Below are positions 26,500-43,616 of a stretch of 64,000 bases of DNA, piece after piece. Source of the stretch: an uncultured bacterium (GTDB lineage Bacteria > Cyanobacteriota > Vampirovibrionia > Gastranaerophilales > Gastranaerophilaceae); the NCBI GenBank assembly GCA_948433295.1, contig CAOJDT010000001.1, positions 1,869 to 65,868 of the forward strand. The letters are read 5' to 3'. The notes beneath the pieces were generated by a model. The model was not told where the DNA came from, did no database searches, and worked only from the letters and a program-made list of their open reading frames with translations. Within the stretch, counting starts at the first letter, position 1; each line of letters opens with the position of its first letter. The translations under genes were made by a program, and so were the position numbers.

Positions 26500-26522
26500 G
26501 TAGGAGCAGTTTGTCAATTGCT
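26500..26522 (+). repeat. Left copy of the 23-bp perfect direct repeat bracketing the island
   Basis: GTAGGAGCAGTTTGTCAATTGCT, identical to 43451-43473. Weaker similarity continues for about 16 bp (cttgtaaa-gtaaca vs cttgcaaaaataaca). Confidence 0.9.
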
Positions 26523-26599
26523 TGTAAAGTAACACTCTAGATGATTATTTGTAACAGTAAAAACGAGTATTTGAAATTTATAAATATAAACTAAATTTT

Positions 26600-28078: not shown

Positions 28079-28167
28079 ATAGTTATTGTAGCATAAGAAA
28101 TTCCGTTAAATACTGTATTTACATGCTTAATGTTTCTTAATATATTTATTGTAAAATGAGGTGAATT

Positions 28168-29760
28168 ATGACTTTTAATATAAAAGATTTTCAGAATAAA
28201 CTTTGGAAGACCGCTGATGATTTACGTGCAAATTCAAGTTTAAAATATAATGAATTTTCTACTCCGGTATTGGGATTGATATTTTTACGCTTTGCAGATT
28301 ATAGATTTCAAAAAGCTAAACCTGAAATAGAAAAATTAAAAACTTCATCTCGACGAGCTTTTGATGAGAAAAATGCTTATCAAGCACGAGGGATTCTGTT
28401 TGTACCGGAAAAAGCATCTTTTAACTATTTATTAAACTTGCCGGAAAGTGAGAGTATTGCAAAAGCGTTAAATGAGGCAATGTCATTAATTGAAGATGAA
28501 AATCCTATCTTAAAAGGTGTTTTGCCAAAAGGTTATGCGAGGATTCCTGATGATTTGTTAGTTGCTACAATGAAAGTATTTGCTGATGTAGATTTTGATA
28601 GAGAAAATGGGGATGTATTTGGTAAAGTTTACGAATTTTTCTTGGGCAAATTTGCTAGTTCAGAAGGTCAAAAAGGCGGAGAATTCTATACTCCGACTTG
28701 TTTAGTAAAATTGCTTGTTGAAATTATGAAACCATTCCATGGTAATGTATATGACCCAGCCTGCGGTTCAGGTGGTATGTTTGTCCAAACTGCCGAATTT
28801 GCCAAAAGAGAGAATAAAGATGAAGATAAGTCTGTCAACGATTTAATTACGGTAGAAGGACAAGAAAAAACAGAAGAAACAGTCAGATGGTGCAAGATGA
28901 ACCTTGCTGTGCATGGACTTGAAGGTGATGTAAAGCAAGCAAATAGTTTTTATGACGATGTTTTTGATTCGGTTGGGAAATATAATTTCGTACTTGCTAA
29001 TCCTCCATTCAATGTTGATGGTGTAGATAAAGAAAGACTAAAAGGAGATAAAAGATTTCCGTTTGGTTTACCAAAAGCTGATAATGCGAATTATTTATGG
29101 ATACAGATGTTTTACTCAGCATTAAAGACTCCGAAAGATGGCGAAAACGCACGTGCTGGTTTTGTAATGCCAAACTCTGCAAGCGATGCAAGACAAACTG
29201 AACAAGCTATAAGAGAAAAAATTATTAAAGATAACGCAGTTGATGTTATGATATCCGTGGGAAGTAATATGTTTCACAACGTAACCTTACCTTGTACTCT
29301 TTGGTTTTTAGATAAAGGAAAGAAAAATACAGACAGAAAAGATAAGGTTCTTTTTCTTGACGTAAGAGGAATTTATAATCAAATTGATAGAGCACACAGA
29401 GAATTTACTGATGAACAGATAGAATTTATTACAAATATTGTAAAACTTTATCGTGGTGAAAAACCTGATTATAAGTGGGGTAGTAAAAAATTAATATTAG
29501 AAAACTTCCCTAATGAAAAGTATCAAGATGTTAAAGGCTTGTGCAAAGTCGCAACCATTGAAGAAATAGAAAAACAAGGTTGGAGTTTGAATGCCGGTCG
29601 ATATGTCGGGGTGGCAGAAACCGAAGAAGAAAACTATGTTTTTGAAGAAAAACTCCAAGAATTAAATTCTGAACTTGAAAAGTTAAATAAAGAAGCAAAA
29701 GACCTCGAAAACAATATTGCACATAATATTAAAGAATTGTTAAGTCTGGGGGTAAAATGA
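28168..29760 (+). CDS. hsdM: Type I restriction-modification system methyltransferase subunit
   Basis: HsdM N-terminal helical domain, AdoMet motif DPACGSGGM, catalytic NPPF (LANPPFNV). Confidence 0.9.
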   Translation: MTFNIKDFQNKLWKTADDLRANSSLKYNEFSTPVLGLIFLRFADYRFQKAKPEIEKLKTSSRRAFDEKNAYQARGILFVPEKASFNYLLNLPESESIAKALNEAMSLIEDENPILKGVLPKGYARIPDDLLVATMKVFADVDFDRENGDVFGKVYEFFLGKFASSEGQKGGEFYTPTCLVKLLVEIMKPFHGNVYDPACGSGGMFVQTAEFAKRENKDEDKSVNDLITVEGQEKTEETVRWCKMNLAVHGLEGDVKQANSFYDDVFDSVGKYNFVLANPPFNVDGVDKERLKGDKRFPFGLPKADNANYLWIQMFYSALKTPKDGENARAGFVMPNSASDARQTEQAIREKIIKDNAVDVMISVGSNMFHNVTLPCTLWFLDKGKKNTDRKDKVLFLDVRGIYNQIDRAHREFTDEQIEFITNIVKLYRGEKPDYKWGSKKLILENFPNEKYQDVKGLCKVATIEEIEKQGWSLNAGRYVGVAETEEENYVFEEKLQELNSELEKLNKEAKDLENNIAHNIKELLSLGVK

Positions 29761-31016
29761 AATTAAATGATTTTTGTTATATCAATCCAGCAGAACAGTT
29801 GAATCGCAATGAAGAATATGAATTTATAGAAATGGCTGATTTAACTCCAGGAGATAGATACGTTTTTTCAAAACAAAAAAAAATATTTAATGGTAGTTTT
29901 TCTAAATTTTCCAATAAAGACACTTTGATGGCAAAAATTACTCCTTGTCTAGAGAATGGAAAAATATCACAATATATTGGAGAAAATAAAGCTTTTGGTT
30001 CTACGGAATTTAATATTTTTAGAGAAAAAGAAAATGTTTCGAATGCTGATTACTTATATTATTTAGTTAGCTCTACCATTGTAAAGGAACCTGCAATTAA
30101 AAGTATGTCAGGAGCAACTGGTAGACAAAGATCAAATTTAGATGAAATAAAACAAATAAATGTACCTGACTTCAATATAGCAATTCAAGAAAAAATAGCA
30201 AAAATTCTTTCAAATTACGATGATTTGATCGAAAACAACAATAAACGCATTAAGATTTTAGAAGAAATGGCACAAAAAATCTATAAAGAATGGTTTGTTG
30301 ATTTCAAATTCCCAGGACATGATGTTGCGACTTTCAAACAAACTAACCTTGGTATAATTCCAACCGATTGGGATTGTAAACCAATAGGAGAATTACTAAA
30401 ACACAAAATTGGTGGAGGTTGGGGTAATGAAGAAAAAGATCAAAAATATACAGAAAGGGCCTATGTTATTCGTGGAACCGATATTCCATACGGAAGAGAA
30501 GGTAATATTCAGAATTGCCCTTTACGATATCATACGAGTTCTAATATTAAAACTCGTTTATTACAAACTAATGATATTGTATTTGAAGTATCTGGGGGCA
30601 GTAAAGGACAACCTGTCGGAAGAGCATTGTTATTAAATAAAAATTTATTTAATCAATTTAAAGATAATGTTATTTGTGCAAGTTTTTGTAAGTTATTAAG
30701 AACTGATGTCGAACAAATCGTGCCAGAGTTATTATATTTACACCTGTTAAATATTTACAATAATGGAGAAATAGAAAAATATCAAACACAATCAACCGGT
30801 ATAATTAACTTTAAATTTACATTCTTTTTAGAAAGCGAGCAAATACTTGTGCCAAGTACCGATATTCAGGAATTATTCAAAAAAATAGCTGTACTTATTT
30901 TTGATGAAATATCATTGTTGGGTTATAAAAATCAAACTCTAAAGCAAACCCGTGATCTTCTTTTGCCACGCTTGATCTCCGATGAAATTAATGTTGAAAA
31001 TATGGAGATTTCGTAA
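29757..31016 (+). CDS. hsdS: Type I R-M specificity subunit
   Basis: Two target-recognition domains are separated by the conserved helical spacer (LIENNNKRIKILEEMAQKIYKEWF), with a C-terminal LLPRLISDE. It has a 4-nt ATGA overlap with hsdM. Confidence 0.85.
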   Translation: MKLNDFCYINPAEQLNRNEEYEFIEMADLTPGDRYVFSKQKKIFNGSFSKFSNKDTLMAKITPCLENGKISQYIGENKAFGSTEFNIFREKENVSNADYLYYLVSSTIVKEPAIKSMSGATGRQRSNLDEIKQINVPDFNIAIQEKIAKILSNYDDLIENNNKRIKILEEMAQKIYKEWFVDFKFPGHDVATFKQTNLGIIPTDWDCKPIGELLKHKIGGGWGNEEKDQKYTERAYVIRGTDIPYGREGNIQNCPLRYHTSSNIKTRLLQTNDIVFEVSGGSKGQPVGRALLLNKNLFNQFKDNVICASFCKLLRTDVEQIVPELLYLHLLNIYNNGEIEKYQTQSTGIINFKFTFFLESEQILVPSTDIQELFKKIAVLIFDEISLLGYKNQTLKQTRDLLLPRLISDEINVENMEIS

Positions 31017-31053
31017 TTTATAAATATTTTATGTTTTGTTTATAATATAAAAC

Positions 31054-31869
31054 ATGGCAAGAAAAAATATTTTTGAAATTATAGAAGAAAAATATGATCT
31101 AAAAGAAGAAATTGGCAAAATTGATTTCTTGTTTAATAATGCTCTTCTAATCATTCATAATAATTTAACTTTCCAACAGGAGCAAGGAAATGTTGAAGCT
31201 GTTGTACAGAACATGTTGTTTTTTAATTGGAAACAGCGTGGTTCGTCTTTAAATTGTGAAGAAGTTCGCAGAAAATTAGATATTGATTTAAATAAGTTCG
31301 AAAATGAAGATATTATAGTTCGCTTAGAATATTATTTAAACATTATTAGTCTGGTAAATACTAAATTAATGTATCCAAATTGTCAAAAGACTCAACAATT
31401 CGTTATGCTGGAAAAGAATATTGAAATTTTACTAGATCATTTAAATTACGAATATCTAGATATTAAAGAAGAGGAAAAAATTCTTTTAGTTCCTAAAAAT
31501 CCAGCTGCAACTTCAGTTGCAGAAATATCAACGAAAGATACTGCTATAGCAATATTAATGTACAATCATTCCTCATTAAAAGGTAATTTAAGTCAAAAAC
31601 AGAGTTTGTTGTTAAAAATATACATAGAGTATGAAAAATTGCTTAAAAAACCAATTGATGGATTTTCAGAATTTTTTGATAAAACTAAAGGTTTAATAAA
31701 TAAATTAAATATCAAGCACGACAATAAAAAAGAAATTTCAGATATAGATAATATTCAATTGGAAGAATGGTATGATGAATTATATCAACTACTATTATTT
31801 TGCGTTTTAATAAAAGATAATATTGAACGAAAAAATAAAGCAGGAAATTTTTTAAAAAGTTTAAAGTGA
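31054..31869 (+). CDS. Hypothetical protein embedded in the type I R-M operon (271 aa)
   Basis: Clean ORF 38 nt after hsdS, helical and Lys/Glu-rich. No recognisable motif. Confidence 0.5.
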   Translation: MARKNIFEIIEEKYDLKEEIGKIDFLFNNALLIIHNNLTFQQEQGNVEAVVQNMLFFNWKQRGSSLNCEEVRRKLDIDLNKFENEDIIVRLEYYLNIISLVNTKLMYPNCQKTQQFVMLEKNIEILLDHLNYEYLDIKEEEKILLVPKNPAATSVAEISTKDTAIAILMYNHSSLKGNLSQKQSLLLKIYIEYEKLLKKPIDGFSEFFDKTKGLINKLNIKHDNKKEISDIDNIQLEEWYDELYQLLLFCVLIKDNIERKNKAGNFLKSLK

Positions 31870-31910
31870 TTCACCTAATTTAACAAAACAGATGAAAACA
31901 TAAGCTTGCC

Positions 31911-32016
31911 TTGTATGTAAAAATAATGATAAAATTACACGCAAAGCAATTTGTGTTACTTTAGTTACTTACAAATTTGATTGTATGTAAAAATATTCAT
32001 AAAATTGCATGCAAAT
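31911..32016 (+). repeat. Two ~36-bp imperfect direct repeats with 70-bp spacing upstream of fic
   Basis: ttgtatgtaaaaataatgataaaattacacgcaaag (31911) versus ttgtatgtaaaaatattcataaaattgcatgcaaat (31981), about 31/36 identical. Confidence 0.8.
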
Positions 32017-32033
32017 TATATTCATGGTATAAT
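32005..32033 (+). promoter_or_regulatory. Putative sigma70-type promoter for fic-hsdR
   Basis: TTGCAT (32005-32010), 17 nt, then TGgTATAAT (extended -10, TATAAT at 32028-32033). An AGGAGA RBS and ATG 32053 follow. Confidence 0.55.
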
Positions 32034-32052
32034 TGTTTTAATAGGAGACAGT

Positions 32053-33162
32053 ATGACATATACACCTTCAAAACCTAATAAAATAGCTGATATTGAGATC
32101 GATTTTAGGCAATTTATATCTCTTATAGGTAAATCCCATTCGGCATTGTCTAATTATAATGGAGCATTGAGTCATTTAGTCAATCCTCAAATTCTTTTGG
32201 CACCAATGACGACAAAAGAATCAGCAATGTCATCTAAAATAGAGGGAACGCAGGCTACATTTACAGAAGTTTTGCAACATGATGCAGGAGAAAATTTTAA
32301 TACATATAAAAGCCAAGAGATTCAAGAAGTGCTTAATTATCGTTCAGCAATGACTTATGCTACAGAGTTATTGCAAGAAAGGCCTTTTATTCACTTGAAT
32401 ATGATTAGAGATATACACAAGGTTTTATTAAGTGGAGTAAGGGGTGAAAATAAAGCCAGAGGAGAATTTAGAAAAATTCAAAATTGGATAGGTCCTAAAA
32501 ATTCAACAATAGAAACCGCTTCTTTTGTTCCTCCTGCACCTAATGAAATTATTGATTATCTTGATGAATGGGAAAAATTTATTAATTCTGATTTTGAAGA
32601 TTTACTTGTGCAATTAGCGATTGTACATGCTCAATTTGAAATTATTCACCCCTTTCTAGATGGTAATGGAAGATTAGGCAGACTTTTAATTCCTATATTT
32701 TTGTATTCAAAAGAGTATCTTGCCCAGCCAATATTCTATTTAAGTGAATATTTTGAAACTCACAGAGAAGAATATTATACCCATTTAAGAAATATAACAG
32801 TAGAAAATAATTGGCAAGATTGGATTAAATTCTTTTTAAATGCAATTGTGGAACAATCAAAAATTAACACAGCTAAAATTAATCAAATATTAGAGCTTTC
32901 ACATAATATGAAAATTATTATACAAGAAACAACGAAATCTCAATATACAGCTAATATACTTGATACTATTTTTTCAAAACCAATTTTTTCAACAACAACA
33001 TTTTCAAAATTTGCAAATATTCCTAACAGGAAAACCGCAATTTCTATTTTGCAAAAACTTACAGAAAAAAATGTTATTCAATTAACAAGAGAAGCAAGTG
33101 GAAATAGAAGTAATTTGTATACATTCCAAAATTTGCTTGATATTATTGACGGAGACAACTAA
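32053..33162 (+). CDS. fic: Fic-family protein (AMPylase-type) with C-terminal wHTH
   Basis: Canonical Fic motif HPFLDGNGRLGRLL. The start is taken at ATG 32053 after AGGAGA, not the tracked TTG 31981. The stop overlaps the hsdR start (TAATG). Confidence 0.85.
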   Translation: MTYTPSKPNKIADIEIDFRQFISLIGKSHSALSNYNGALSHLVNPQILLAPMTTKESAMSSKIEGTQATFTEVLQHDAGENFNTYKSQEIQEVLNYRSAMTYATELLQERPFIHLNMIRDIHKVLLSGVRGENKARGEFRKIQNWIGPKNSTIETASFVPPAPNEIIDYLDEWEKFINSDFEDLLVQLAIVHAQFEIIHPFLDGNGRLGRLLIPIFLYSKEYLAQPIFYLSEYFETHREEYYTHLRNITVENNWQDWIKFFLNAIVEQSKINTAKINQILELSHNMKIIIQETTKSQYTANILDTIFSKPIFSTTTFSKFANIPNRKTAISILQKLTEKNVIQLTREASGNRSNLYTFQNLLDIIDGDN

Positions 33163-36100
33163 TGCATAAACTATCAGAAGAAGCATTTGAATTTGATTTG
33201 ATGACTGAGTGTGAACAAAAACTCGGATATAATCTTTTTGATGCCTCGTCTGAAATTATTGGAGGCGAAAATTCTACATTTGGTCGACAAACAACAGATG
33301 AAGTAATTCTTTCCAAAAATCTTCGCACTGCTCTTAAACGATTAAACCCAGAATTACCACAAGAAGCTTTAGATAATGCTTATTATGAATTAACGCAAGA
33401 TTTATCAACAAAGACTGCAATTGGTGCAAATAAGTACGTTTATTCTTTGTTAAAAGATGGTGTAAAAGTTCAATTTAAAGATAATAATGGAATAGATACA
33501 ACAGACATTGTTAAAGTCATTGATTTCCAAGAACCTCGCAATAATGAATATTTGCTTATTAGACAGTTTAAAATATCAGGTGAAAGGTATAACTGTAGAG
33601 CTGATTTAATATTATTCGTTAATGGTTTACCTTTAGTATTTATCGAATTAAAAGCAACTCATAAACATATTGAAAATGCCTTTAATGATAATATTACACA
33701 CTATAAAAAAGAAATTCCTCAAGTGTTTTGGTACAATGCATTTATTATAGTATCAAACGGAACGGATGCAAAATTCGGTACAATAACATCTAAATGGGAG
33801 CATTTTTCTGATTGGAAAAAGATTGACAACAATGACTCTAAGGGGATTATTTCAGCAGATACTTTAATGAAAGGTATGTGCAAGCCTGAAAATTTGTTAG
33901 ATATTATAGAAAATTACACCCTTTATCAAGAAGTTAAAGGTGGAATGATTAAAATCTGTGGAAAAAATCATCAGTTTTTAGGTGTTAATGCTGCTATAGA
34001 AAATTTTAAAATAAATACAGATGGAAAACTTGGTGTTTTTTGGCATACACAAGGCAGTGGAAAAAGTTTTTCAATGATATTTTTTGTTCAAAAAATACTT
34101 AGAAAGATTAAAGGCAATTGGACTTTTGTTGTTGTTACAGATAGATGCGATTTAGACGAACAAATTTATAAAAACTTTGTTTCAACAGGAGCAATTACAG
34201 AACAAAATGTTCAAGCTACAAGTAGAGAACATTTAAAACAGTTATTAAAAGAAGATCATAGAACAATTTTTACAATGATTCAAAAATTTGGCACAGAAAA
34301 AAAAGGACAAAATTTTGAACAGATTTCTGATAGAAATAACATTATTGTAATAACTGATGAGGCACACCGTACACAATATGGCACCTTAGCAATGAATATG
34401 AGAGAAGCTCTCCCAAATGCTAAATTTATTGCTTTTACCGGCACACCTTTAATGAAAGATGATGAAAAAACAAAGCTTGTGTTTGGTGATTATGTAAGTA
34501 AGTACACATTTAAACAGTCAATAGAAGATACTGCAACTGTTCCTTTGTATTACGAAGCCAGAATACCTGAAATGCAGATAATAAATGAAGATTTAGAAAA
34601 ACAGCTTCAAGATATTATTGATTCTGCTGATTTTTCAGAAGAACAAGAAGAAGAATTTGAAAAAGAATATGTAAATATGTATCAAGTAATTACAAGAGAA
34701 GACAGGCTTGATGCAATAGCAAAAGATGTAGTTGAACATTTTATAAATCGTGGTTTTATGGGTAAAGCAATGTATGTTGCAATAGATAAAGCTACTACAA
34801 TAAAAATGTATAATAAAGTTAAAGTTGAATGGGATAAATATATTAAAGTTCTTGAAAACAAACTAACAACAGCCAACGAAGATAATAAAGAAGTTTTGCA
34901 AAATCAAATTGATTACATGAAAGAAACTGATATGGCGGTCGTTGTTTCTTCTTCTCAAAATGAAGATGAACAAATGAAACAAAAAGGGGTTGATATTACA
35001 CCACACAGAACAAGAATGAAAAAAGAAGATTTAGCCACTAAATTTAAGGATAAAGAAGATAAATTAAGATTGGTTTTTGTTTGTGCAATGTGGGTTACCG
35101 GTTTTGACTGCCCAACTATTTCAACCCTTTATCTTGATAAAATTTTAAAAGAACATACACTAATGCAAACGATTTTAAGAGCAAATAGAGTTGCATTAGG
35201 TAATTACAATGGTTTAATTGTTGATTATATTGGCATATTTAAGGCATTACAAAAAGCATTAGCAATATATGGTGAACCTGCTGATGGAAGTGATTCAGAA
35301 GAAGAACCAGCGGAAACAAAAGCTGAATTGATTAAGCTTTTAGATTCAGAAGCTACAAAAATGAAAGATTTTCTTAATTCAAAAAATATTGATGTTGATA
35401 CAATATTTGATACAAGAGCTTTAGAATGTATAAAAAGAACAGAGGAAGCTGTTAATACAATATTAGAAACAGAAAAGGGCAAAACGGAGTTTCTAAAAGG
35501 AACGCAAAATCTAAAAGCATTATTTAAAGCAATTTTGCCTGATAGTGAAGCAAGAAGATTTGCAAAACTGGTTTTTGTTTGTTCAATTCTTTGTGCAAAA
35601 ATAAGAGAGGTTACAATTAAATCTATTGATAATACGGAAATCAAACAACTTGCTCAAAAAGTAGAAGAGCTGCTCAATGAATCAATAAATCTTAGATCTT
35701 ATGAAATAAAAGCCGGGGAAAAACTTGATTTAAGTAAAATAGATTTTGAAGAATTGCAACGAAGAATTTTAAAAGAAAAACAACGAGCATTGTTAGAAAA
35801 GCTTAAATCAACAATTAGTTCTAAACTTTCAATGATGTTAAAAATTAACGATATGAGAAAACATTTTCAAGAAAAATTTGAGCAGATTATTGATGAATAT
35901 AATGCAGGAAAGCTAACAATGGAGCAAATGTATGTTCAGTTAGTAGCCTTAACAAATGATTTAACTGCAGAAGAAAAACGCCATCTCGGTGAAAATTTAA
36001 CAGAAGAAGAACTCGCAATTCTTGATATTTTAACTAAACCTGAACCAAAACTTTCAAAAAAAGAATTTGAAACAGTAAAAGCTGCTGCGCAAAGGCTGGT

Positions 36101-36311
36101 AAAAGTTATAAAAAAAGAAAAATTAGTTTTGAATTGGCGTAAGAAACAATCTACAAGAGCAAAAGTTAAAGAAGCAATTGAAACAATTTGTGATGAAACG
36201 TTGCCTGAAATATATAATAAAGATTTATTTCAAGAAAAATGTAACCACATATATGACCATTTTTATGATTGTTATAATAATAGCAATGATAACATATACA
36301 ATGTAGCATAG
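33162..36311 (+). CDS. hsdR: Type I restriction endonuclease subunit R
   Basis: 1049 aa. N-terminal HsdR_N nuclease region (DLILFVNGLPLVFIELK), helicase motif I (HTQGSGKS), DEAH-like VITDEAHRTQ, C-terminal helical domain. Confidence 0.9.
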   Translation: MHKLSEEAFEFDLMTECEQKLGYNLFDASSEIIGGENSTFGRQTTDEVILSKNLRTALKRLNPELPQEALDNAYYELTQDLSTKTAIGANKYVYSLLKDGVKVQFKDNNGIDTTDIVKVIDFQEPRNNEYLLIRQFKISGERYNCRADLILFVNGLPLVFIELKATHKHIENAFNDNITHYKKEIPQVFWYNAFIIVSNGTDAKFGTITSKWEHFSDWKKIDNNDSKGIISADTLMKGMCKPENLLDIIENYTLYQEVKGGMIKICGKNHQFLGVNAAIENFKINTDGKLGVFWHTQGSGKSFSMIFFVQKILRKIKGNWTFVVVTDRCDLDEQIYKNFVSTGAITEQNVQATSREHLKQLLKEDHRTIFTMIQKFGTEKKGQNFEQISDRNNIIVITDEAHRTQYGTLAMNMREALPNAKFIAFTGTPLMKDDEKTKLVFGDYVSKYTFKQSIEDTATVPLYYEARIPEMQIINEDLEKQLQDIIDSADFSEEQEEEFEKEYVNMYQVITREDRLDAIAKDVVEHFINRGFMGKAMYVAIDKATTIKMYNKVKVEWDKYIKVLENKLTTANEDNKEVLQNQIDYMKETDMAVVVSSSQNEDEQMKQKGVDITPHRTRMKKEDLATKFKDKEDKLRLVFVCAMWVTGFDCPTISTLYLDKILKEHTLMQTILRANRVALGNYNGLIVDYIGIFKALQKALAIYGEPADGSDSEEEPAETKAELIKLLDSEATKMKDFLNSKNIDVDTIFDTRALECIKRTEEAVNTILETEKGKTEFLKGTQNLKALFKAILPDSEARRFAKLVFVCSILCAKIREVTIKSIDNTEIKQLAQKVEELLNESINLRSYEIKAGEKLDLSKIDFEELQRRILKEKQRALLEKLKSTISSKLSMMLKINDMRKHFQEKFEQIIDEYNAGKLTMEQMYVQLVALTNDLTAEEKRHLGENLTEEELAILDILTKPEPKLSKKEFETVKAAAQRLVKVIKKEKLVLNWRKKQSTRAKVKEAIETICDETLPEIYNKDLFQEKCNHIYDHFYDCYNNSNDNIYNVA

Positions 36312-36374
36312 CCGACTTGACTTCTTCTCTCTTAAGAGTGATGAATACGACACCTAAAGAAAAGGAGGTCGTAG

Positions 36375-36602
36375 ATGGAAAAAGTAGGTTTTAATATTAC
36401 GGACAAAGAATTTAAGTTATTAAGCAGAAAAACTGAGGCGGTTTATAATATAGCTGTTGTTGCTGATTATTTCTGTACCACACAGCAGGAAATAGAAGAG
36501 TTATACAATTTGACACCGATTATTAAAAATTTAAGAGCGGAAGCTGACTTTTTGAATGCATTTTTCATTCAAGCAGAAGGAAATAAAGATTCTTTAGTTT
36601 AA
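36375..36602 (+). CDS. Hypothetical protein (75 aa)
   Basis: AAGGAGG RBS 6 nt upstream of the ATG. No recognisable family. Confidence 0.35.
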   Translation: MEKVGFNITDKEFKLLSRKTEAVYNIAVVADYFCTTQQEIEELYNLTPIIKNLRAEADFLNAFFIQAEGNKDSLV

Positions 36603-36714
36603 ACAACGATTAAACCCCGTTCAAAAAGTGTTCAAAAGGCGTTCTATTGAATTTAATTTGTGCGAGTGTATATTTTTATTCAAATGACGATTTGGGAGCA
36701 ATAAACGGCTAAAA

Positions 36715-37125
36715 TTAAAAATCAAAATCCCATTTTTCGTCATCATTGAAGAAATCTTCTTCGGTATCTTGTTTTTTGATGGCAATATTGAGTAATTCTT
36801 CTAAAGTCAGTTTTTTAGTTTTTGGCTTAACCATTTCTTCAGTTATGTTTAGAAATTTATTCAGTCTTGAAACATCAATTTGCTGATTATTTGCCAAATC
36901 CTCGTTAAAATCATCAAGCATTTGGCGAACTAATTGATACATATCGTAATTAGTCAATGTTTGTTTCTTTAAAAATTCTTTTCGTTTTTCACCCCAATTA
37001 CCTTCTGCTTTCCATCGACGAACAGTCCTATCACTTACCCCAAGTCGTTTTGCGACTCCGACTTCGGTTATAAACTGCTCAACGTACATTTTTTCTGCTT
37101 TATCAAAATATTTATTTTTCTTCAT
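36715..37125 (-). CDS. YjcR/terminase-small-like HTH protein (136 aa)
   Basis: N-terminal HTH VGVAKRLGVSDRTVRRWKAEGNWGEKR, resembling phage terminase small-subunit/YjcR-type HTH. 4-nt overlap with the upstream transposase gene. Confidence 0.5.
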   Translation of the reverse strand: MKKNKYFDKAEKMYVEQFITEVGVAKRLGVSDRTVRRWKAEGNWGEKRKEFLKKQTLTNYDMYQLVRQMLDDFNEDLANNQQIDVSRLNKFLNITEEMVKPKTKKLTLEELLNIAIKKQDTEEDFFNDDEKWDFDF

Positions 37126-39077
37126 AAAGCCTTCGCACTCATTGCTTCCATTTCAATTCGCTCTTTTTCCAAAATTTTATCAGTTTCAAACAAATACAAT
37201 TTTTCTTCCTGTTTATTATCTTCTAAAAATACAGATAAATCCTGTCTGCCAAATGCTTCCATCTCTTTGTTTTTCTGAATAGCTTTATCCATATTAGTAT
37301 TGGCAATTTTTGAAACTTTAATACTCTTTTTATAATCTTTATTGCTGGAATTGTAAGCTGCTTTATAGTTTTCATATTGTTCTTCAAGTGGAATTTCACG
37401 AGTTTGTTTGATGTAAGACTTTGTAATTTTCAGATTTCGTTTCTTTATTGATAATGCTTCTTTAAACTCCTCTTTTGAAACTTTATCTGCGTGTAATGCC
37501 ACAACCGCTTTAACTGCTTTAACTGTTCCGACAAACTCATCATTATCTGCCTTAAAAGCCCACGCTTCTTTGTAATCCTGAACATCCCGACGAAGATATA
37601 CTTTCAAACCTGTTCTTGTAATCATCCAGTCTGCCCAGTAAGTAATATTGAGTTGCCTGTCTTGAATACCGTTTCGCCCAATTGTAAAATTACGAGAAGT
37701 CCTCATACAAAATAGTTTCAACGCATCACGTGACGGTGTGATTTTTTCGGTGTATTCATTGTAAAACAATTCGTCAGGACAAATTCCGTTTAGATTTTTA
37801 CCGTTTGAAGGCTTTTTATTTAAAACATTCAGGATAAAATTATCAAATATTTTCTTAAAATCTTCAAATTGCATAATTTTACCGGCTTTAATTTCGTTTG
37901 CCAGTTTTTCAGGACGTTCGACGACATTTCCACCACGATAACCCACGCAATGTTTTGAGAGCAATTCTTTAATCTTTAGAAAATCCCTTTCTACCGGTTT
38001 TGTTTGAGCATTATATGGAAGTGCAAAATGTACATTAACATTCAATTCCTTTAACATTGCAGAAGTTTGACCTTTGCTGATATCAACCTTAAAATTTGAC
38101 CTGCCGCCCGCAAAATCCTTTGAGCGGTAATCTTTCCCGTTGTCAATAATCACATCTTTTGGCAAACCAAATTTTTGTGCTGCATAATAAAAAGACTGAA
38201 ATATAAAATCCGAATTAGGATTTTTTGTTTGCAAAACCCAACCGAGCCATTTACCGGATTTGTAATCTCGCCAAACCGTAACCCAAGGGAAAACGACTTT
38301 TCCATCTGAGTCAAAACAAGCAACATCAATCTGTGCATGATCTGATACCCAAACTTCATTGCAAGTTATATTTGAGTAATCTCTATCTATATACCCGCCA
38401 TATCTTCTATTCCAAGCAGATTGACCATATCGTGCCAAATAAATACCCTGTTTAGGAATCTCTTTATCAAGTCTGCGTTTGAAAGCCATAAAGCTCGGAA
38501 AAGTTTCTCTATCTGCATTAAATTCTCTTATTGCATAACCTAAAGTCAAATCCCAACAAGTTCTTAGAGAGGGTGCACTCTCAATCAGATATAAATTTTT
38601 AAAATATTCAAAATAATCATCTTGGACGGAACTTCCTCTTAAATGCTGCCCGTGACGTGATAACAACCCGTTTAAACCATACCTGAAATATCTTCTTCGC
38701 ATTTTTATAACTGACGAATAAGAGGTTGGTTCATTTGATTCGTTCCATTCTTCAATAAATTGCTTTAAATCGTTACCTTTTAACCCGTCAGAGTTTTCCA
38801 GTATTTCTAAATACTTTTCAGCCTGTTGTTTCGCCCAATTTGGGGCTTCCGAGTATTTAATATCCGAAAAACTTACTCCGAAATATTTATCTTGAACAAA
38901 ATCAGGAAGAGATTTTAACAGAATAAAATAATTTGCACACTTTCCTTTTTTTACAATTTTAAAGACAAATTTACCAACTCGACATTGTTTTTTAAGGGTT
39001 TGTTCACTCAAACCAATAATGCCTGCCGCGGTTTTAATATCTATCCATATATTTGTTTTGTCTTTTTTCTGTTTCAT
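37122..39077 (-). CDS. Mu-type (rve-fold) DDE transposase, 651 aa
   Basis: N-terminal Mu-like wHTH (IKTAAGIIGLSEQTLKKQCR). DDE triad context: VWVSDHAQIDV, VIIDNGKDYRS, YNAQTKPVERDF. Confidence 0.8.
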   Translation of the reverse strand: MKQKKDKTNIWIDIKTAAGIIGLSEQTLKKQCRVGKFVFKIVKKGKCANYFILLKSLPDFVQDKYFGVSFSDIKYSEAPNWAKQQAEKYLEILENSDGLKGNDLKQFIEEWNESNEPTSYSSVIKMRRRYFRYGLNGLLSRHGQHLRGSSVQDDYFEYFKNLYLIESAPSLRTCWDLTLGYAIREFNADRETFPSFMAFKRRLDKEIPKQGIYLARYGQSAWNRRYGGYIDRDYSNITCNEVWVSDHAQIDVACFDSDGKVVFPWVTVWRDYKSGKWLGWVLQTKNPNSDFIFQSFYYAAQKFGLPKDVIIDNGKDYRSKDFAGGRSNFKVDISKGQTSAMLKELNVNVHFALPYNAQTKPVERDFLKIKELLSKHCVGYRGGNVVERPEKLANEIKAGKIMQFEDFKKIFDNFILNVLNKKPSNGKNLNGICPDELFYNEYTEKITPSRDALKLFCMRTSRNFTIGRNGIQDRQLNITYWADWMITRTGLKVYLRRDVQDYKEAWAFKADNDEFVGTVKAVKAVVALHADKVSKEEFKEALSIKKRNLKITKSYIKQTREIPLEEQYENYKAAYNSSNKDYKKSIKVSKIANTNMDKAIQKNKEMEAFGRQDLSVFLEDNKQEEKLYLFETDKILEKERIEMEAMSAKAL

Positions 39078-39087
39078 AAATACTTTA

Positions 39088-39105
39088 AGTTTAAATTGCT
39101 TGTAA
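39088..39105 (+). repeat. Partial third copy of the island junction sequence
   Basis: agtttaAATTGCTTGTAA versus the left junction agtttgtcAATTGCTTGTAA (26508-26527). There is a 12-nt exact match at 39094-39105 = 26516-27. Confidence 0.7.
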
Positions 39106-39337
39106 TTCTTTTTAAAGGGTGTGAAATTTTACTTTGTCAACTTTAGGACAAAAGATTCTTCTGAAAATTCAGTTATAATCAGATTTTTTATTTTTAGGAA
39201 TTTTTTGCATTTTATATTAAAAGCCTTATTGTTATTGCGTTATATCCATATTCAAAAATTGTCCCATTTTTAATGTAGAAATGTTACATAATTATATTTT
39301 GATATTGGGATAAATTAAATAAGGCACAAATTCTTGA

Positions 39338-39353
39338 TTGGGAAATTTCCCAA
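39338..39353. promoter_or_regulatory. Perfect 16-bp palindrome (operator-like) in the intergenic gap between transposition modules
   Basis: TTGGGAAATTTCCCAA, seen directly. It lies about 100 bp downstream of the stop (39452) of the 224-aa ORF, in the 374-bp gap upstream of the 651-aa transposase gene (start 39077). Confidence 0.5.
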
Positions 39354-39451
39354 AAGCTGAATTAAAATGATATTATTGAATTTCAGCATAAATTTTCTAA
39401 GATAATATATGCCGAAAAATACCGTTTTTTCGTTAAAAATTAGGGAAAAGT

Positions 39452-40126
39452 TTATTGCGAAAAATTAAGCAAATTGTTTTTTAGGTCAAAATAAAGTTCA
39501 TTGAAATTCTTATTTCTGCGCCAAAGAGTTTCAGCAATTTTGCAATTTAGATTATGAGCATTTTGATTATGAGTCAAATTTCTTGTGAGGTAACAATAAA
39601 TTTTAGAAAATTCGGTTTTATCATTTGGATTTAAAGGTCTATCTTCAGGACTTTGCAATAAAATATCCGATACAAAAACTTGTTTGTTATAAATATATAA
39701 ATAAACTTCTTGGTCAAAAAACATTCTGCGTCTTGCATTTTGAGGTTCTTGAACATAAAAATCTCTAAGCCGTTTTTCTTGTCGCTCATAAATAAGCGTT
39801 CTAAAAATTGTGTAAAATTTTTGCACTTGATCCTCACCCACTGATAAAATATGTGAGGCTTTGGTTGTGCTAATTGATTCGCAAAAACACCTTAAAACTA
39901 AATCAATTGTCACTTTGGGGTAATATTTAAAAATCGAATATTTCGCAGAAATACTTTGTTTTTTAGAGTAAAAATATATTCCATTTTCTTGTAATAATTT
40001 ACCTTCAGAAATTAATTCGTTAATTATCGGAAGTAATTTGTCTGGCTCAAGCTCTGATATTGTAGATATTTCATCAAGCGTAAATTTGTTTAGACGTTTG
40101 CAAAGAAGTAAGATTTTGTCTTTCAT
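39452..40126 (-). CDS. Hypothetical wHTH-like protein (224 aa), candidate target-selection/accessory factor
   Basis: The N-terminal ~55 aa look like a winged helix (LNKFTLDEISTISELEPDKLLPIINELISEGKL). It overlaps the ATPase gene end by 53 nt. No TniQ zinc ribbon is recognisable. Confidence 0.45.
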   Translation of the reverse strand: MKDKILLLCKRLNKFTLDEISTISELEPDKLLPIINELISEGKLLQENGIYFYSKKQSISAKYSIFKYYPKVTIDLVLRCFCESISTTKASHILSVGEDQVQKFYTIFRTLIYERQEKRLRDFYVQEPQNARRRMFFDQEVYLYIYNKQVFVSDILLQSPEDRPLNPNDKTEFSKIYCYLTRNLTHNQNAHNLNCKIAETLWRRNKNFNELYFDLKNNLLNFSQ

Positions 40127-40802
40127 CTAATATATTCCTTAAATTTTCTTCGTTTAATTCTGTAATATCATTTGTTTTTGCTAATTTTTCAACCTTGTTT
40201 ATCAATTTAACTATCTGTCTAAATTGATTATGTCGTGTCGCTAAATACTCAAGTCCATCAGGACTTATAGGAATTTCCGTAAGTTCCGATACTATTTGTT
40301 TAATATCCTGACTTTCATAACTTTTAAATTTAAAAGCCTTATAAATTCTATCTTTTAAATGAGGATAACGAGATAATTTTTTATCAATGTTTGCCATTCC
40401 AACTAAAACTAACGGACAATTTGTTCTATCATGCAAATCTCTCAAAATTTCAATGACATTATTATTTATAAGATAATCAACTTCATCAATAATTATAGTT
40501 TTAGGAGTTTGCCTTAATTTATTTTCAATCATATTAAAAGTTTCTTGGGAGTGCCAATATGCTTCTTCCCCAAGTTCATCTGATATTTCTGAAAGTAACC
40601 ATCTAACTGACATCCCTTTTGTTGCTCTAACATACACGCAATCATTTTTGAAAGTCCACCATTTTATCGTTTCAGATTTTCCAAGTCCATACTCACCATA
40701 AACTAGTGCAATTTTAGGAATGTTCGGCGGAAGTGATTTTAATTCCTCCATGAATCCTATAAATTCTTTGACGTTTTTTGTTTTTACAAAAGTTTTTCTC
40801 AT
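40074..40802 (-). CDS. MuB/TniB/TnsC-like AAA+ transposition ATPase (242 aa)
   Basis: Walker A VYGEYGLGKSE, Walker B IIIDEVDYL. It lies immediately downstream of the 737-aa transposase gene, with an AAGGAG RBS. Confidence 0.75.
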   Translation of the reverse strand: MRKTFVKTKNVKEFIGFMEELKSLPPNIPKIALVYGEYGLGKSETIKWWTFKNDCVYVRATKGMSVRWLLSEISDELGEEAYWHSQETFNMIENKLRQTPKTIIIDEVDYLINNNVIEILRDLHDRTNCPLVLVGMANIDKKLSRYPHLKDRIYKAFKFKSYESQDIKQIVSELTEIPISPDGLEYLATRHNQFRQIVKLINKVEKLAKTNDITELNEENLRNILDERQNLTSLQTSKQIYA

Positions 40803-40805
40803 GAG

Positions 40806-42974
40806 CTAATCTCCTTCTTGGTTGCTCGCATTAAACGGGGCTACAAACGAAAACTCACTGTTTCCGTTTTCCGCCCTCTGCTCGCAATCCGCATATAAAT
40901 TAATGTATTCATCACTTTTCATATAATTAACAAGCCATTTTCTATCTTCTTGATTTGTTGTTCCGTTGCTCATTAGCCATTCAAATTTTTCATAATCAGA
41001 ATTAAAAAATGGTCTGTTCATTTGCTGTTCACGAGGTGTTTGTTTGCGTTCACGTTTTAATTTCACAACAGAAAGTTTTTGAACATTTTTCATTTTCTCT
41101 TCATTTACCCCTTCAATTTCTAAAACTTCTGCATCTTCTGTCGGATAATATTTGAGAAAGTCCTTTTTGACCTTATTAAACTGACGTTTTTGTTTTTGAA
41201 TTCGTTGTTTAAATTCTTCCATATCTTTGACAGTTCCGAGATGATTTACCATCGGGTGAATTTTTTCTTCCTGACGAGCCACGCATAAAAACTCACCTTT
41301 CATTGAATAAACATAGATTTTGGATAAATCAAAAAGTGAATACCTGATAAATACTGTTTCCCTTAAATCAAGTAAAACCTCGCTTCTGTAATGCAAACCA
41401 AAGAATGTTATTCCATGTCTATTAATCGTTCTCGTTTCGGTTTTCATCATCAAATCGTTTAAAATATTTTTATCAATTTCTTGCTGCTTGGGGGCTCGCG
41501 TTAAACGGGTATCGCTACCGCTTTCACCCTCTGCTCGCCTCCGCTTTTGAACATCATTTAACATCTCTTGAATAGTTTTTGAACTATCATTAGGACAAGG
41601 TTTTGAGTTATGGTAATCAATCCAACAATCAATATATTTAATTACTTCTTGAACGGTTGGAATATAATTATTAGTTAACTTTTTATGCATTTCTCGGTGG
41701 AGTTTTTCACCTCGTTTCAACCACGCCGGCTTATCTTCAATTGAAGTCCCAATGTATGAAATCATCATCTTTTCAAACTCTTCTTGAAATTCTAAGAAAA
41801 ATCTCTCGATTACTTTCGCTCTCGCATTGTATGGTTTAGCGAATACCGATTTAATTCCTAAGTTTGAATAAACACCGTTAAATCCTGCCTCATCAAAATC
41901 TGTATGTTGGAAGTATTTTGCTTTAAACGCTTTTCCGTTATCTTGGTACACAACTTTTGGAATTAAACCGAGATTTAAAATCGCATTACGCAATGCACTT
42001 GCAATGCATTGAGTATTTTCGGTCATCATAATTTCATACCCAACAAGTGCTGTTGATTTCCAATCTAAAAAGCCAACGAGTGTCGCTCTCGTTGGCTTGC
42101 CTGTAAATGGATTAATAACTTGAAAATTAAGAACGTGTCCGTCTGCGATTAAGACATCACCGACTTCCAGTTTTGAAATATCCCTCTCAATATATGCTTC
42201 CACTTTATCGTGGTATGCTTTTTCACCCTCTCTCATTAATACCCATTTTGAATAATTTGTCTTTTTAAAGTGTTCGGCAAATCTTCTGAAAGTAAGATTG
42301 CAAGGTATGTTTTCATATCCTCGTTTTTCTAAAACGTGCTTTGTTAGATTAATTGCCTTCCCGATGCTGAACTGATTAGGATGCAGAAGGTATTTTAAGA
42401 ATATTTGTTTCATTTCATTATTTAATATTGTGTTGTACTCATTCTGTTGGGATGTCTTTCTTTGCGGCAAAAGTCCGTTTGTACCATAATTTTCATAGGC
42501 TTTAACCCAACGATGCAATGTTCCAATTGAAATTGAACCGACAAATTTGTATATTTGAGGTAAATACATTCCGCTGTTATACAAATTTAAAAAGATTTCA
42601 TCTGCTTCTTTCTTGGTTTGATATTTTGTTCGCAAGTTAAATAATGCCGTTACGATATCGACTCTTGCTAATGCGTTTAACCTTGAGTTCTCTGAAATAA
42701 AATTCACTTTATTTTCTACAGGAATTAAAGATGTTGATTTAATTTCTTCATCTTCAAGTTTTTCCTGAATTTCAGACTCTAAACTTGAATACAAAATCTC
42801 ATAAGAAGTTCCTCCATTAACTTTAACTTCCCGAGCGATGTATTTTCCTTTTTGAATAGCAATCCTAATAGAGCGGGTACTTTTTAACCCTTTTACTTCT
42901 GCTATTCGCTTTATGTCTATATAGTGTTCTGTTTTGTCTTGGATTATTGACGGTTCAAAATCTTTGCACTCCAT
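40806..42974 (-). CDS. Mu/TnsB-type DDE transposase (about 722 aa from ATG 42974)
   Basis: Mu-like N-terminal DNA-binding domains. DDE context: VLIADGHVLNF, VVYQDNGKAFKA, YNARAKVIERFF. The tracked GTG 43019 start is replaced by ATG 42974, which is preceded by AAAGGAAAAA. Confidence 0.8.
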   Translation of the reverse strand: MECKDFEPSIIQDKTEHYIDIKRIAEVKGLKSTRSIRIAIQKGKYIAREVKVNGGTSYEILYSSLESEIQEKLEDEEIKSTSLIPVENKVNFISENSRLNALARVDIVTALFNLRTKYQTKKEADEIFLNLYNSGMYLPQIYKFVGSISIGTLHRWVKAYENYGTNGLLPQRKTSQQNEYNTILNNEMKQIFLKYLLHPNQFSIGKAINLTKHVLEKRGYENIPCNLTFRRFAEHFKKTNYSKWVLMREGEKAYHDKVEAYIERDISKLEVGDVLIADGHVLNFQVINPFTGKPTRATLVGFLDWKSTALVGYEIMMTENTQCIASALRNAILNLGLIPKVVYQDNGKAFKAKYFQHTDFDEAGFNGVYSNLGIKSVFAKPYNARAKVIERFFLEFQEEFEKMMISYIGTSIEDKPAWLKRGEKLHREMHKKLTNNYIPTVQEVIKYIDCWIDYHNSKPCPNDSSKTIQEMLNDVQKRRRAEGESGSDTRLTRAPKQQEIDKNILNDLMMKTETRTINRHGITFFGLHYRSEVLLDLRETVFIRYSLFDLSKIYVYSMKGEFLCVARQEEKIHPMVNHLGTVKDMEEFKQRIQKQKRQFNKVKKDFLKYYPTEDAEVLEIEGVNEEKMKNVQKLSVVKLKRERKQTPREQQMNRPFFNSDYEKFEWLMSNGTTNQEDRKWLVNYMKSDEYINLYADCEQRAENGNSEFSFVAPFNASNQEGD
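40817..40892 (-). repeat. GC-rich hairpin repeat, copy B (inside the 3' end of the transposase ORF)
   Basis: Coding-strand sequence GCGAGCAGAGGGCGGAAAACGG...CGTTTGTAGCCCCGTTTAATGCGAGCAACCAAG. It shares GCGAGCAGAGGG...CCCGTTTAAYGCGAGC..CCAAG with copy A. Confidence 0.8.
41487..41544 (-). repeat. GC-rich hairpin repeat, copy A (inside the transposase ORF)
   Basis: Coding-strand sequence GCGAGCAGAGGGTGAAAGCGGTAGCGATACCCGTTTAACGCGAGCCCCCAAG. It is read in a different frame from copy B. Confidence 0.8.
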
Positions 42975-43450
42975 TTCGTTTTTCCTTTCGTAAAAACTAC
43001 ATTCCGTCAGATTTTTCACAGGGACGGCGTTCGCTAACGCTCAGCCTTGTCAAAATCCGCCATCGTACACACACATTAACTCATTTTAAACCCAATTGGA
43101 ACACCATTTCCGAGCTTTGTGTCGTTTTGTGTTGATAAAATTCATATCCGACCTTTGAGCAAAAATTACCGACCTCCAAAATGAATTTGAAATTACTCAC
43201 ATAGTCCTCAAAAGTCAAATAATCGTTTTACCCGTACAATTTAGTAAAACTGGGAGAATGCAGGACTGTAATTAGGTTTTAAAAATAAAATATTGGAATT
43301 TTGAGCAACTTTCTGATACCCAAAAGAGACTTTTGAGTAATTTGCGTAACGCATAAAATGATTATTCCCGACCGCTCAAACTCAAACACCAAGCCAACTC
43401 TGCCGAATAATACTTCTATGCGTTCAGATAAAATGTCCTGTTAAAGTACA
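42975..43450. other. ~476-nt noncoding, repeat-rich region between the transposase start and the island tip (candidate transposon end and/or ncRNA locus)
   Basis: No credible ORF. It has three CCGACC motifs (43148, 43169, 43368) and TTTGAG(C/T)AA motifs in both orientations (43154, 43299, 43331; inverted near 43207 and 43372). Confidence 0.5.
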
Positions 43451-43473
43451 GTAGGAGCAGTTTGTCAATTGCT
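43451..43473 (+). repeat. Right copy of the 23-bp perfect direct repeat
   Basis: GTAGGAGCAGTTTGTCAATTGCT, identical to 26500-26522. Confidence 0.9.
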
Positions 43474-43525: not shown

Positions 43526-43529
43526 AATG

Positions 43530-43616
43530 CGGAGAGGGTGGGATTCGAACCCACGGAGGGTGTTACCCCTCACAGACTTTCGAGATCCGCACCTTAAACC
43601 ACTCGGACACCTCTCC
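43530..43616 (-). tRNA. tRNA-Ser (anticodon CGA), class II with long variable arm
   Basis: Reverse complement reads GGAGAGGTGTCCGAGTGGTTTAAGG...CTCGAAA anticodon loop...GGGTTCGAATCCCACCCTCTCCG. No encoded CCA. Confidence 0.9.

Follow-up and report, generated by a model that had tools for sequence, protein, structure and literature searches.

A 64,000-nt stretch of contig CAOJDT010000001.1 (positions 1,869 to 65,868; assembly GCA_948433295.1), from an uncultured bacterium of the Gastranaerophilaceae, was analysed as one window, and all positions given without a locus name refer to it. Next to a tRNA-Ser(CGA) gene the window holds a block of five minus-strand open reading frames (ORFs), which an initial annotation, made from the letters of the DNA, had described as a transposition block with two DDE transposases (here Tnp1 and Tnp2), an AAA+ ATPase and two small helix-turn-helix (HTH) proteins of 224 and 136 aa (p224 and p136). 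The six-frame ORF list reproduced this layout exactly, including the 53-nt overlap of the ATPase and p224 genes, the 4-nt overlap of the Tnp2 and p136 genes and the gap of 374 bp between p224 and Tnp2. Comparison with related loci indicates that the five genes are the core of a single 16,928-bp transposon (window 26523-43450), which descends from Mu-like phages (Table 1). The boundaries, target and ancestry of the element are well supported, and the division of labour between its two transposition modules is a testable hypothesis.

A generic repeat search of window 20-45 kb gave no useful repeats, and the ends emerged only when the window was compared with the loci of transposase homologues (numbered L001 onwards); homologues of both transposases are plentiful in gut and rumen metagenomes. 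Similarity ends at two exact bases, which delimit an element of 16.9 kb with TG...CA termini. The left end (LE), read on the minus strand, starts at 43450 with TGTACTTTAACAGGAC, and the right end (RE), read toward its outer edge, closes at 26523 with CTGTTACAAATAATCATCTAGAGTGTTACTTTACA. At each end an 8-bp TGTA... terminus precedes a set of 22-bp sites, of which three are dispersed on the left and two, contiguous and weaker, lie on the right. The three strong LE sites (consensus AACGsATAAAAnGATTATTyGG) are conserved in four diverged subfamilies, as is the terminal-proximal 22-mer at 43442-43421 in an alignment of four subfamilies, and position weight matrix (PWM) scores of 25-28 are confined to LE across the whole window. 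The RE sites share an AAC...TGATTATTTG pattern with those of LE. Such a contrast between a dispersed and a packed arrangement of sites is an asymmetry known from Tn7 and Mu, and the asymmetric ends, the 8-bp TGT... terminus and the multiple 22-bp sites correspond to the end architecture of Tn7-like elements.

Table 1. Features of the element and its insertion site (positions in the 64,000-nt window).
Feature	Position	Strand	Remarks
Right copy of 23-bp direct repeat	26500-26522		directly outside RE
RE	26523-26574		plus strand opens with TGTAAAGT; conserved to final base in L007, L014, L020 and L030, then divergence
RE 22-bp sites, contiguous	R1 26531-26552; R2 26553-26574		weak PWM match at R2
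Defence cargo region, variable	26600-36311
AbiO/Nhi	26600-28078	minus	PADLOC AbiO 1e-146
Type I restriction-modification (R-M), hsdM	28168-29760		PADLOC MTase_I 4e-201
Type I R-M, hsdS	29757-31016		Pfam
271-aa ORF	31054-31869
SoFic	31981-33162		PADLOC SoFic 4e-111
Type I R-M, hsdR	33162-36311		PADLOC REase_I 1e-177
p75, 75-aa ORF	36375-36602	plus	convergent with p136
p136, 136 aa	36715-37125	minus	start overlaps Tnp2 stop by 4 nt
Tnp2, MuA-type DDE transposase, 651 aa	37122-39077	minus	DDE_2, HTH_Tnp_Mu_2, Mu-transpos_C
Gap upstream of Tnp2, 374 bp	39078-39451	minus	perfect 16-bp palindrome TTGGGAAATTTCCCAA at 39338-39353
p224, 224 aa	39452-40126	minus	N-terminal winged helix and C-terminal domain without fold match
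AAA+ ATPase, MuB/TnsC/TniB type, 242 aa	40074-40802	minus
Tnp1, MuA/TnsB-superfamily DDE transposase	40806-42974 (722 aa from ATG); ORF to GTG 43019 (737 aa)	minus
In-frame GC-rich 57-nt insertion in Tnp1	41486-41544	minus	blastn alignment breaks; absent from all homologues
LE	43021-43450	minus	terminus TGTACTTT; homology break with L001/L002 at 43450
LE 22-bp sites	43424-43403; 43348-43369; 43236-43215		direct; inverted; direct
Left copy of 23-bp direct repeat	43451-43473		AGCAATTGACAAACTGCTCCTAC (read on minus strand); abuts LE
tRNA-Ser(CGA), insertion-site landmark	43529-43616	minus	ARAGORN

One possibility raised at the outset was that the block consists of two independent single-transposase elements standing in tandem. 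It can be seen that, first, there is one LE (43450) and one RE (26523), and that a PWM scan found no end-type sites in the 374-bp gap nor after the p136 gene. Secondly, perfect 5-bp target duplications enclose both transposases in the four relatives with both ends visible (CTCAA in L007, AAGTG in L014, ACAGA in L020/L024 and GAGAA in L030). L014 holds a 20.3-kb transposon whose Tnp1 and Tnp2 modules are set apart by four metabolic genes, all within the single AAGTG duplication. Thirdly, Tnp1 and Tnp2 diverge in step, their identities to the window proteins over five loci being 0.94/0.95, 0.87/0.87, 0.82/0.71, 0.69/0.68 and 0.71/0.66. Because one duplication encloses both modules, even with cargo between them, the block belongs to a single element. 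Tandem accumulation does happen at these sites, as seen in L001, where another island abuts LE; even so, the tandem arrangement is refuted for the relatives with both ends visible, and we give it next to no credence in general. Supposed Tnp1-only and Tnp2-only elements in L002 and L014 were rejected as well, since they are parts of one element within a single AAGTG duplication.

Both transposases bear out the D, D, E contexts and Mu-type N-terminal domains that had been read from their sequences. Tnp1 matched Mu-transpos_C (Pfam, 1e-18), HTH_Tnp_Mu_2, which is the Mu Iγ DNA-binding subdomain, and phrog_310 (Mu-like transposase, 2e-111). Its profile matched MuA (2e-4) and ShCAST TnsB (6e-4) in the PDB with the DDE residues aligned. 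Tnp2 matched phrog_310 at 6e-82 and MuA (PDB 4FCY) at 1e-8, also with the DDE residues aligned. The MuA triad D269/D336/E392 corresponds to D293, D359 and E405 of Tnp1 (737-aa numbering) and to D246, D311 and E363 of Tnp2. Both proteins have the rve core and Mu-transpos_C barrel of TnsB-type transposases and are equidistant from MuA and ShCAST TnsB. They are only 26% identical to each other and 24-30% identical to proteins of known phages in the annotated phage collection. The 57-nt insertion lengthens the window copy of Tnp1 by about 19 aa, which come after the catalytic core and before the C-terminal barrel. It folds as a hairpin (minimum free energy -20 kcal/mol), shares a 37-nt stretch at 95% with two intergenic repeats of L012, and looks like a small mobile hairpin repeat.

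The ATPase gene adjoins that of Tnp1. The proposed relationship of the ATPase to MuB, TniB and TnsC was borne out by matches to AAA_22 (7e-18), TniB (4e-9) and phrog_296 (MuB-like, 7e-45), and its best PDB match was MuB (8XVB, 2e-6), ahead of VchTnsC (8e-4), which places it nearer MuB than TnsC. The block thus contains the Mu-type combination of a MuA-type transposase and a MuB-type ATPase (phrog_310 and phrog_296; PDB 4FCY and 8XVB). The N-terminal segment found in a phage MuB paralogue (the 292-aa MuB2 of L012) is missing from the ATPase, which makes it plausible that a DNA-binding partner acts in trans.

The p224 gene always follows that of the ATPase and overlaps its 3' end in the loci examined, by the same 53 nt in close relatives as here. 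No match to p224 was found in Pfam, PHROG, NCBIfam or PADLOC. When an AlphaFold (AF2) model built from 27 homologues (mean predicted local distance difference test score, pLDDT, 75) was compared with the PDB by Foldseek, only the N-terminal winged helix was matched (MarR, IclR and Sul7s types), and the family profile searched against PDB sequences gave a Sul7s winged HTH at 0.008. TniQ was considered and rejected, as it was returned neither by Foldseek nor by the PDB profile search and none of 39 diverse members had a Pfam TniQ match. Among the other island ORFs there was no candidate for a TniQ/TnsD selector (zinc ribbon plus winged HTH). The family is narrow, with 191 representative clusters among 1.84e9 proteins; the only return of a BFVD fold search was one family member in a deposited phage from a gut virome, and there was no match in the annotated phage collection. 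p224 is also the fastest-evolving of the proteins, retaining 28-44% identity where Tnp1 retains about 70%. We infer that p224 is a candidate target selector which would recruit the ATPase.

The target itself is clear. LE starts 78 bp past the 3' end of the tRNA-Ser(CGA) gene, beyond a terminator hairpin, and each of the 20 mapped LEs follows a tRNA or tmRNA gene at a distance of 36-135 bp, with the same orientation throughout. The targets include tRNA-Ser genes (CGA, GCT, TGA and GGA anticodons), tRNA genes for Met, His, Leu and Arg, and one tmRNA gene. Outside the 20 are the loci in which no tRNA gene was found upstream of LE, that is L001, where LE abuts another island, and L005, L057 and L102, with none in the locus sequence. 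An identical Tnp1 protein (P0048) occurs at tRNA-Met and tRNA-Ser(GGA) sites with different flanks and cargo, which indicates recent movement. The insertion is therefore orientation-specific at a dedicated type of attachment site, as in Tn7-like elements, at a variable distance. The near-random target choice of Mu-like phages is not seen, every mapped copy being proximal to a tRNA or tmRNA gene. These results confirm that defence cargo (AbiO/Nhi, type I R-M and SoFic) is carried to a tRNA-proximal site, as had been suggested from the window.

Some of these sites show further structure. Stubs of the LE terminus, 10-47 bp long, stand in tandem directly outside the full LE in L007 (4366-4412), L026 (5415-5461), L042 (4711-4776) and L062 (~138-160), and may be scars of repeated insertion at one site. 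Repeated hits at the same spots are suggested by the stubs in L007, L042 and L062 together with the island abutting LE in L001. The latter (L001 1-9575) contains a KAP NTPase, a resolvase, R-M and Fic genes and a p75 homologue; in L002 the transposon whose LE it abuts in L001 stands next to tRNA-Ser instead, which shows tandem accretion at the site.

The second module has a different affiliation. Tnp2 is 60-68% identical to the MuA protein that precedes MuB, GemA and Mor in L012, L016, L063, L064 and L097, and it is the orthologue of the MuA of Mu-like prophages in the same host clade. The gap upstream of Tnp2 contains the palindrome listed in Table 1, and similar GGGGAAnnTTCCCC palindromes occur at the same place in phage-type relatives (locus L012). 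The gap is probably a promoter/operator region rather than a transposon end, and it recalls the early operator of Mu upstream of ner and A. Translational coupling of Tnp2 and p136 is suggested by the 4-nt overlap of their genes.

For p136 the initial annotation had raised a role as a target selector as one possibility. Profile searches gave PF10668 (the HTH of the phage terminase small subunit, 1e-8) and a weak DUF1804 match, the best Pfam match spanning only residues 8-49; there were also weak matches to transposase and excisionase HTH families. Homologues of 141-142 aa, aligned over about 100 residues, stand directly before the large terminase subunit (TerL) and Portal_Mu genes in Mu-like viral contigs. 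The homologue from a phage-type relative was recovered at 4e-25 by hidden Markov model and at 30% identity (1e-19), and it too lies directly before TerL and Portal_Mu. Since homologues of the same size occupy this position, p136 is a homologue of the small terminase subunit (TerS), of the Mu gp27/DUF1804 type, and not a selector. A single-sequence structure model of p136 (pLDDT 55) was too poor and was not used. A conserved core gene that had been missed, p75, follows p136 in most island-type loci; its region has 92% nucleotide identity with L007 up to 36360, and no family match to it was found in Pfam/PADLOC scans of island ORFs. The element thus has its own small-terminase homologue without TerL, portal or capsid, as in TerS-carrying satellites.

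It might be argued that Tnp1 and Tnp2 form an obligate heteromeric transpososome, in which Tnp1 binds and cuts LE, Tnp2 binds and cuts RE and both are needed each time. The two proteins are conserved, intact and co-diverging, both are present in every element with both ends visible, the terminal-proximal LE 22-mer is unlike its RE counterpart and strong left-type sites are missing on the right. However, the AAC...TGATTATTTG pattern shared by the RE and LE sites fits one binding specificity with Tn7-like asymmetry, the phage-type Tnp2 has its own MuB and so resembles a complete second system, and the swapping of Tnp1 and Tnp2 modules in the island clade (see below) argues against tight co-adaptation. 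We therefore consider such a transpososome unlikely.

Relatives of the element reveal where the two modules may have come from. L012, L016, L063, L064 and L097 are Mu-like prophages which carry the Tnp1 module beside a tRNA gene, with an LE of the same type, and tRNA-proximal placement is true of all mapped phage-type copies. Their layout is tRNA, LE, a small gene, Tnp1, ATPase, a p224-like gene, a small ORF in the ner position, Tnp2, a 292-aa MuB, GemA, Mor, and lysis and tail genes. Contig IMGVR_UViG_3300028571_002227, reached by a three-hop walk, continues to TerS (the p136 homologue), TerL and Portal_Mu. TerL, Mu portal, capsid, tail, lysis, Mor/C and GemA genes are present in the phage-type relatives and absent from the window element. 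Scans of the island ORFs against Pfam, PHROG, NCBIfam and PADLOC found no TnsA, TniQ, resolvase or phage structural family, as had been noted, and profile searches identified neither p224 nor p136 as an ordinary TniQ or resolvase. In neighbour-joining trees of Tnp1 and Tnp2 (without bootstrap values) the island-type elements come together in a single clade that lies within the phage-type elements, with some module exchange between Tnp1 and Tnp2 lineages inside the island clade. Judged by these relationships, the family descends from Mu-like transposable phages which already bore two transposition modules. Since the phage-type relatives have both modules and the island clade nests within them, the simplest history is that the island lineage arose once, lost MuB, the regulators and the structural genes, kept MuA and TerS, and gained a variable defence slot.

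In one phage-type relative (L149 14699-15596; IMGVR_UViG_3300028571_002227, ~37.1-38.0 kb) the head-side operon ends with two DNA methylases and a 185-aa tyrosine recombinase. Three CACAyAAGGTTTATTrTGTG repeats follow the recombinase in L149, and this repeat region may be an invertible switch or an unrecognised right-end region.

That a phage ancestor has shed MuB, GemA, Mor and its structural genes could mean that Tnp2 and p136 are non-functional leftovers of a decaying prophage in a transposon driven by Tnp1. The ratio of nonsynonymous to synonymous substitution (dN/dS) does not favour this, for it is 0.08-0.16 for Tnp2 and p136 among relatives at 46-95% identity (Tnp2, 0.08-0.14; p136, 0.09-0.16). 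The values for Tnp1 (0.07-0.12) and p75 (0.05-0.07) are similar, and all six core genes, at 0.05-0.16, are under purifying selection. Nearly all copies examined are intact, the exceptions for Tnp2 being L025, where it is split, and L042, where it is partial, and the islands make up one monophyletic clade in which the core order is constant. The remnant explanation is accordingly disfavoured and looks very improbable.

The five-gene synteny was followed through the related loci. The order Tnp1, ATPase, p224 at the left end is invariant, and Tnp2, p136 and p75 follow directly after p224 in most loci or lie a few kb further on in others. In a scan with one genome per species the p224 family was present in 42 genomes. 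Taxon-labelled carriers are nearly all Candidatus Melainabacteria/Gastranaerophilales; many are labelled 'uncultured bacterium' and few otherwise. Cargo differs among otherwise close elements, which may carry DpnII-type R-M, BREX/TerB/AbiH or cytosine methylases in its place. In the window the SoFic gene and the 271-aa ORF (31054-33162) interrupt the type I R-M operon between hsdS and hsdR.

With the rest of the island packed with defence genes, and with Tnp2 and p136 being close homologues of phage replication and packaging proteins under purifying selection, Tnp2, p136 and p75 might be kept as a decoy which disturbs the replication or packaging of incoming related Mu-like phages, that is for defence and not for mobility. 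A decoy would have no need of the intact catalytic triad and full-length architecture of Tnp2, and the position of these genes is fixed beside module 1 whereas the defence cargo slot varies. This role is quite improbable in our judgement.

Another possibility is that the two modules serve two target pathways without satellite behaviour, comparable to TnsD and TnsE of Tn7. In that case module 1 would perform tRNA homing, and Tnp2, with p136 as a DNA-binding accessory, would take a random or mobile-DNA route. Two complete DDE enzymes under selection are compatible with this, as are the confinement of the best Pfam match of p136 to an N-terminal HTH and its weak transposase/excisionase HTH matches. 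On the other hand, the MuB partner of Tnp2 has been lost in island-type elements, and efficient target capture is what MuB gives Mu, according to established Mu biology (see PMC7350765). In addition, p136 aligns over about 100 residues with the same-size proteins before TerL and Portal_Mu, and all 20 mapped copies are at tRNA/tmRNA sites and none elsewhere. Two pathways of this kind have only a small chance of being correct.

The explanation to which we incline, at somewhat less than an even chance, is that one phage-derived, tRNA-targeting transposon combines a module for targeted integration with a module linked to phage replication and packaging. Module 1 (Tnp1, the MuB/TnsC-like ATPase and p224), at the left end, would integrate the element next to tRNA genes, with p224 acting as the selector that recruits the ATPase, in functional parallel to TnsD/TniQ with TnsC. 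Module 2 (Tnp2, p136 and p75) would be a remnant of the phage replication and packaging machinery. During activity of a related Mu-like helper phage, it may enable the island to replicate by transposition and to be packaged, so that the island would behave as a natural satellite of the mini-Mu type.

A broader scenario, possible but rather doubtful as a whole, is that a Mu-like phage lineage of gut Melainabacteria has split the two jobs of MuA. A Tn7-like module (Tnp1, the ATPase and a new winged-helix selector) would install the prophage behind a tRNA or tmRNA gene, as a safe site, and a classical MuA/MuB pair would replicate it. Natural mini-Mu satellites would then have arisen once, keeping the targeting module, MuA and the small terminase and riding helper phages as exchangeable carriers of defence genes. 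The selector would read a feature common to many tRNA genes and the tmRNA gene, without a guide RNA or TniQ.

Several observations weigh against the combination of targeting and packaging modules proposed here. The distance from tRNA to LE varies (36-135 bp), unlike that in TnsD-dependent CyCAST homing (CyCAST being a cyanobacterial CRISPR-associated transposon, CAST), which is reported to insert at a fixed distance past a tRNA gene (30-33 nt past tRNA-Leu; PMC10293859). Other TnsD-, TniQ- or Cas-directed insertion is generally at a fixed distance too. The two ends share sites only in part, as described above. The RE of a phage-type element could not be placed along contig IMGVR_UViG_3300028571_002227, and island-type elements were not found in IMG/VR viral contigs; the RE motif had a single match in IMG/VR, on a contig of a giant-virus metagenome-assembled genome, presumed to be due to chance. 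L062 (5966-14303) represents a distant subfamily, in which identity to the window proteins is 60% for Tnp1 and 34% for p224; here defence cargo comes directly after p224 (a MutH-type nuclease with a C5 methylase, an AbiJ-NTD3/AAA_21 protein and an HNH protein). No Tnp2 was found within 10 kb past p224 in this locus, in which RE was not reached, and the subfamily may lack it. The window copy itself is flanked by a perfect 23-bp repeat, not by 5 bp as in its relatives, and could be an atypical or impaired copy; in Joint Genome Institute (JGI) metagenomes an exact search with this repeat gave nothing, and no empty site was found. The 19-aa insertion, finally, may be either harmful or harmless to Tnp1 in this copy.

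Among known systems, the functionally nearest are TnsA-less Tn7-like elements which home to tRNA genes (V-K CAST; TnsD-dependent homing of cyanobacterial CAST, PMC10293859), and the nearest in sequence is Mu. In V-K CAST and CyCAST I-D, as in this element, genes for a MuA/TnsB-family transposase, an AAA+ ATPase and a small (here putative) selector follow one another at one end, and the ends are asymmetric with several 22-bp sites; a 5-bp target duplication is shared by the relatives of the window copy. Melainabacteria are the sister group of Cyanobacteria, so that the hosts are related to CAST hosts. Insertion in one orientation downstream of tRNA genes (PMC10293859) and defence-rich cargo (PMC8649781) are further points in common. 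In contrast to those systems, the island has no Cas12k, Cascade, CRISPR array, TniQ/TnsD fold or zinc ribbon, its ATPase is nearer MuB than TnsC, its distance from the tRNA is variable, and it possesses a second MuA-type transposase, a terminase small subunit and a direct phage ancestry.

The TnsA endonuclease of Tn7 proper has no counterpart, in that no TnsA-like domain was found in the island ORFs; TnsA is also absent from the V-K and Tn5053 branches. Tn5053/Tn402 (TniA, TniB, TniQ, TniR) resembles the island in having a three-gene transposition core that lacks TnsA and consists of a DDE transposase, an AAA+ ATPase and a third protein for targeting, and the Pfam TniB match agrees with this. 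However, that match is weak, a full TniA-TniB-TniQ set with TniR and res targeting is not present, there is neither a TniQ fold nor a resolvase, the target is tRNA-proximal instead of a res site, and the N-terminal transposase domains are of the Mu type.

The comparison with Mu and Mu-like phages is closer. Tnp1 and Tnp2 match Mu transposase families, the ATPase matches MuB, the ends are TG...CA, with a 5-bp duplication in relatives, an operator-like palindrome stands before the MuA-type gene, and the phage-type relatives have MuB, GemA, Mor, a Mu-type portal, TerS and TerL. Mu inserts nearly at random and has a single transposase. All mapped island copies, unlike Mu, are beside a tRNA or tmRNA gene and have the extra transposase-ATPase-selector module, and the window element is without structural, lysis and late-regulation genes.

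Phage satellites offer a further parallel. In mini-Mu, the ends and pac suffice for packaging by a helper, together with flanking host DNA. The island is alike to laboratory mini-Mu and to Staphylococcus aureus pathogenicity islands (SaPI) and phage-inducible chromosomal islands (PICI) in being small and capsid-less and in its TerS homologue and replication function, which come from the presumed helper family. As in P4-like and PICI hotspots (PMC9122126), defence genes are found at a fixed type of chromosomal site. It differs from SaPI/PICI in integrating by DDE transposition, not by a tyrosine or serine integrase, and in the absence of primase, replicase and capsid-size redirection genes.

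A search of the literature, which cannot prove absence, found no description of a two-transposase Mu/Tn7 hybrid, a tRNA-homing Mu-like phage or a natural Mu-derived satellite. Taken together, the results uphold the initial annotation in that the architecture is real, conserved and unusual, an undercharacterised member of the Mu/Tn7 superfamily. Neither the tandem option nor the 136-aa selector survived, and the phage ancestry had escaped notice.

If the interpretation is right, the element would link Mu-like phages with Tn7-like targeted transposons in nature; the two groups are known to be related, but we did not find their combination in one element described. It would constitute a compact system free of CRISPR and TniQ, in which three genes and two ends put an insert of over 15 kb behind tRNA genes, always in the same orientation, and such placement would be of interest for targeted-insertion tools. 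It would also add a transposon-type member to the phage satellites and explain the movement of defence islands in a poorly studied gut phylum. The two-transposase architecture raises a clean and testable mechanistic question, namely whether there is one transpososome or two.

One further feature of the window concerns a second tRNA gene, tRNA-Arg(ACG), at 54987-55060. In a low-GC stretch just downstream of it, a 392-aa protein is encoded on the minus strand (53118-54296), which consists of about seven tandem HTH units with matches to HTH_28, HTH_23 and HTH_Tnp_1.

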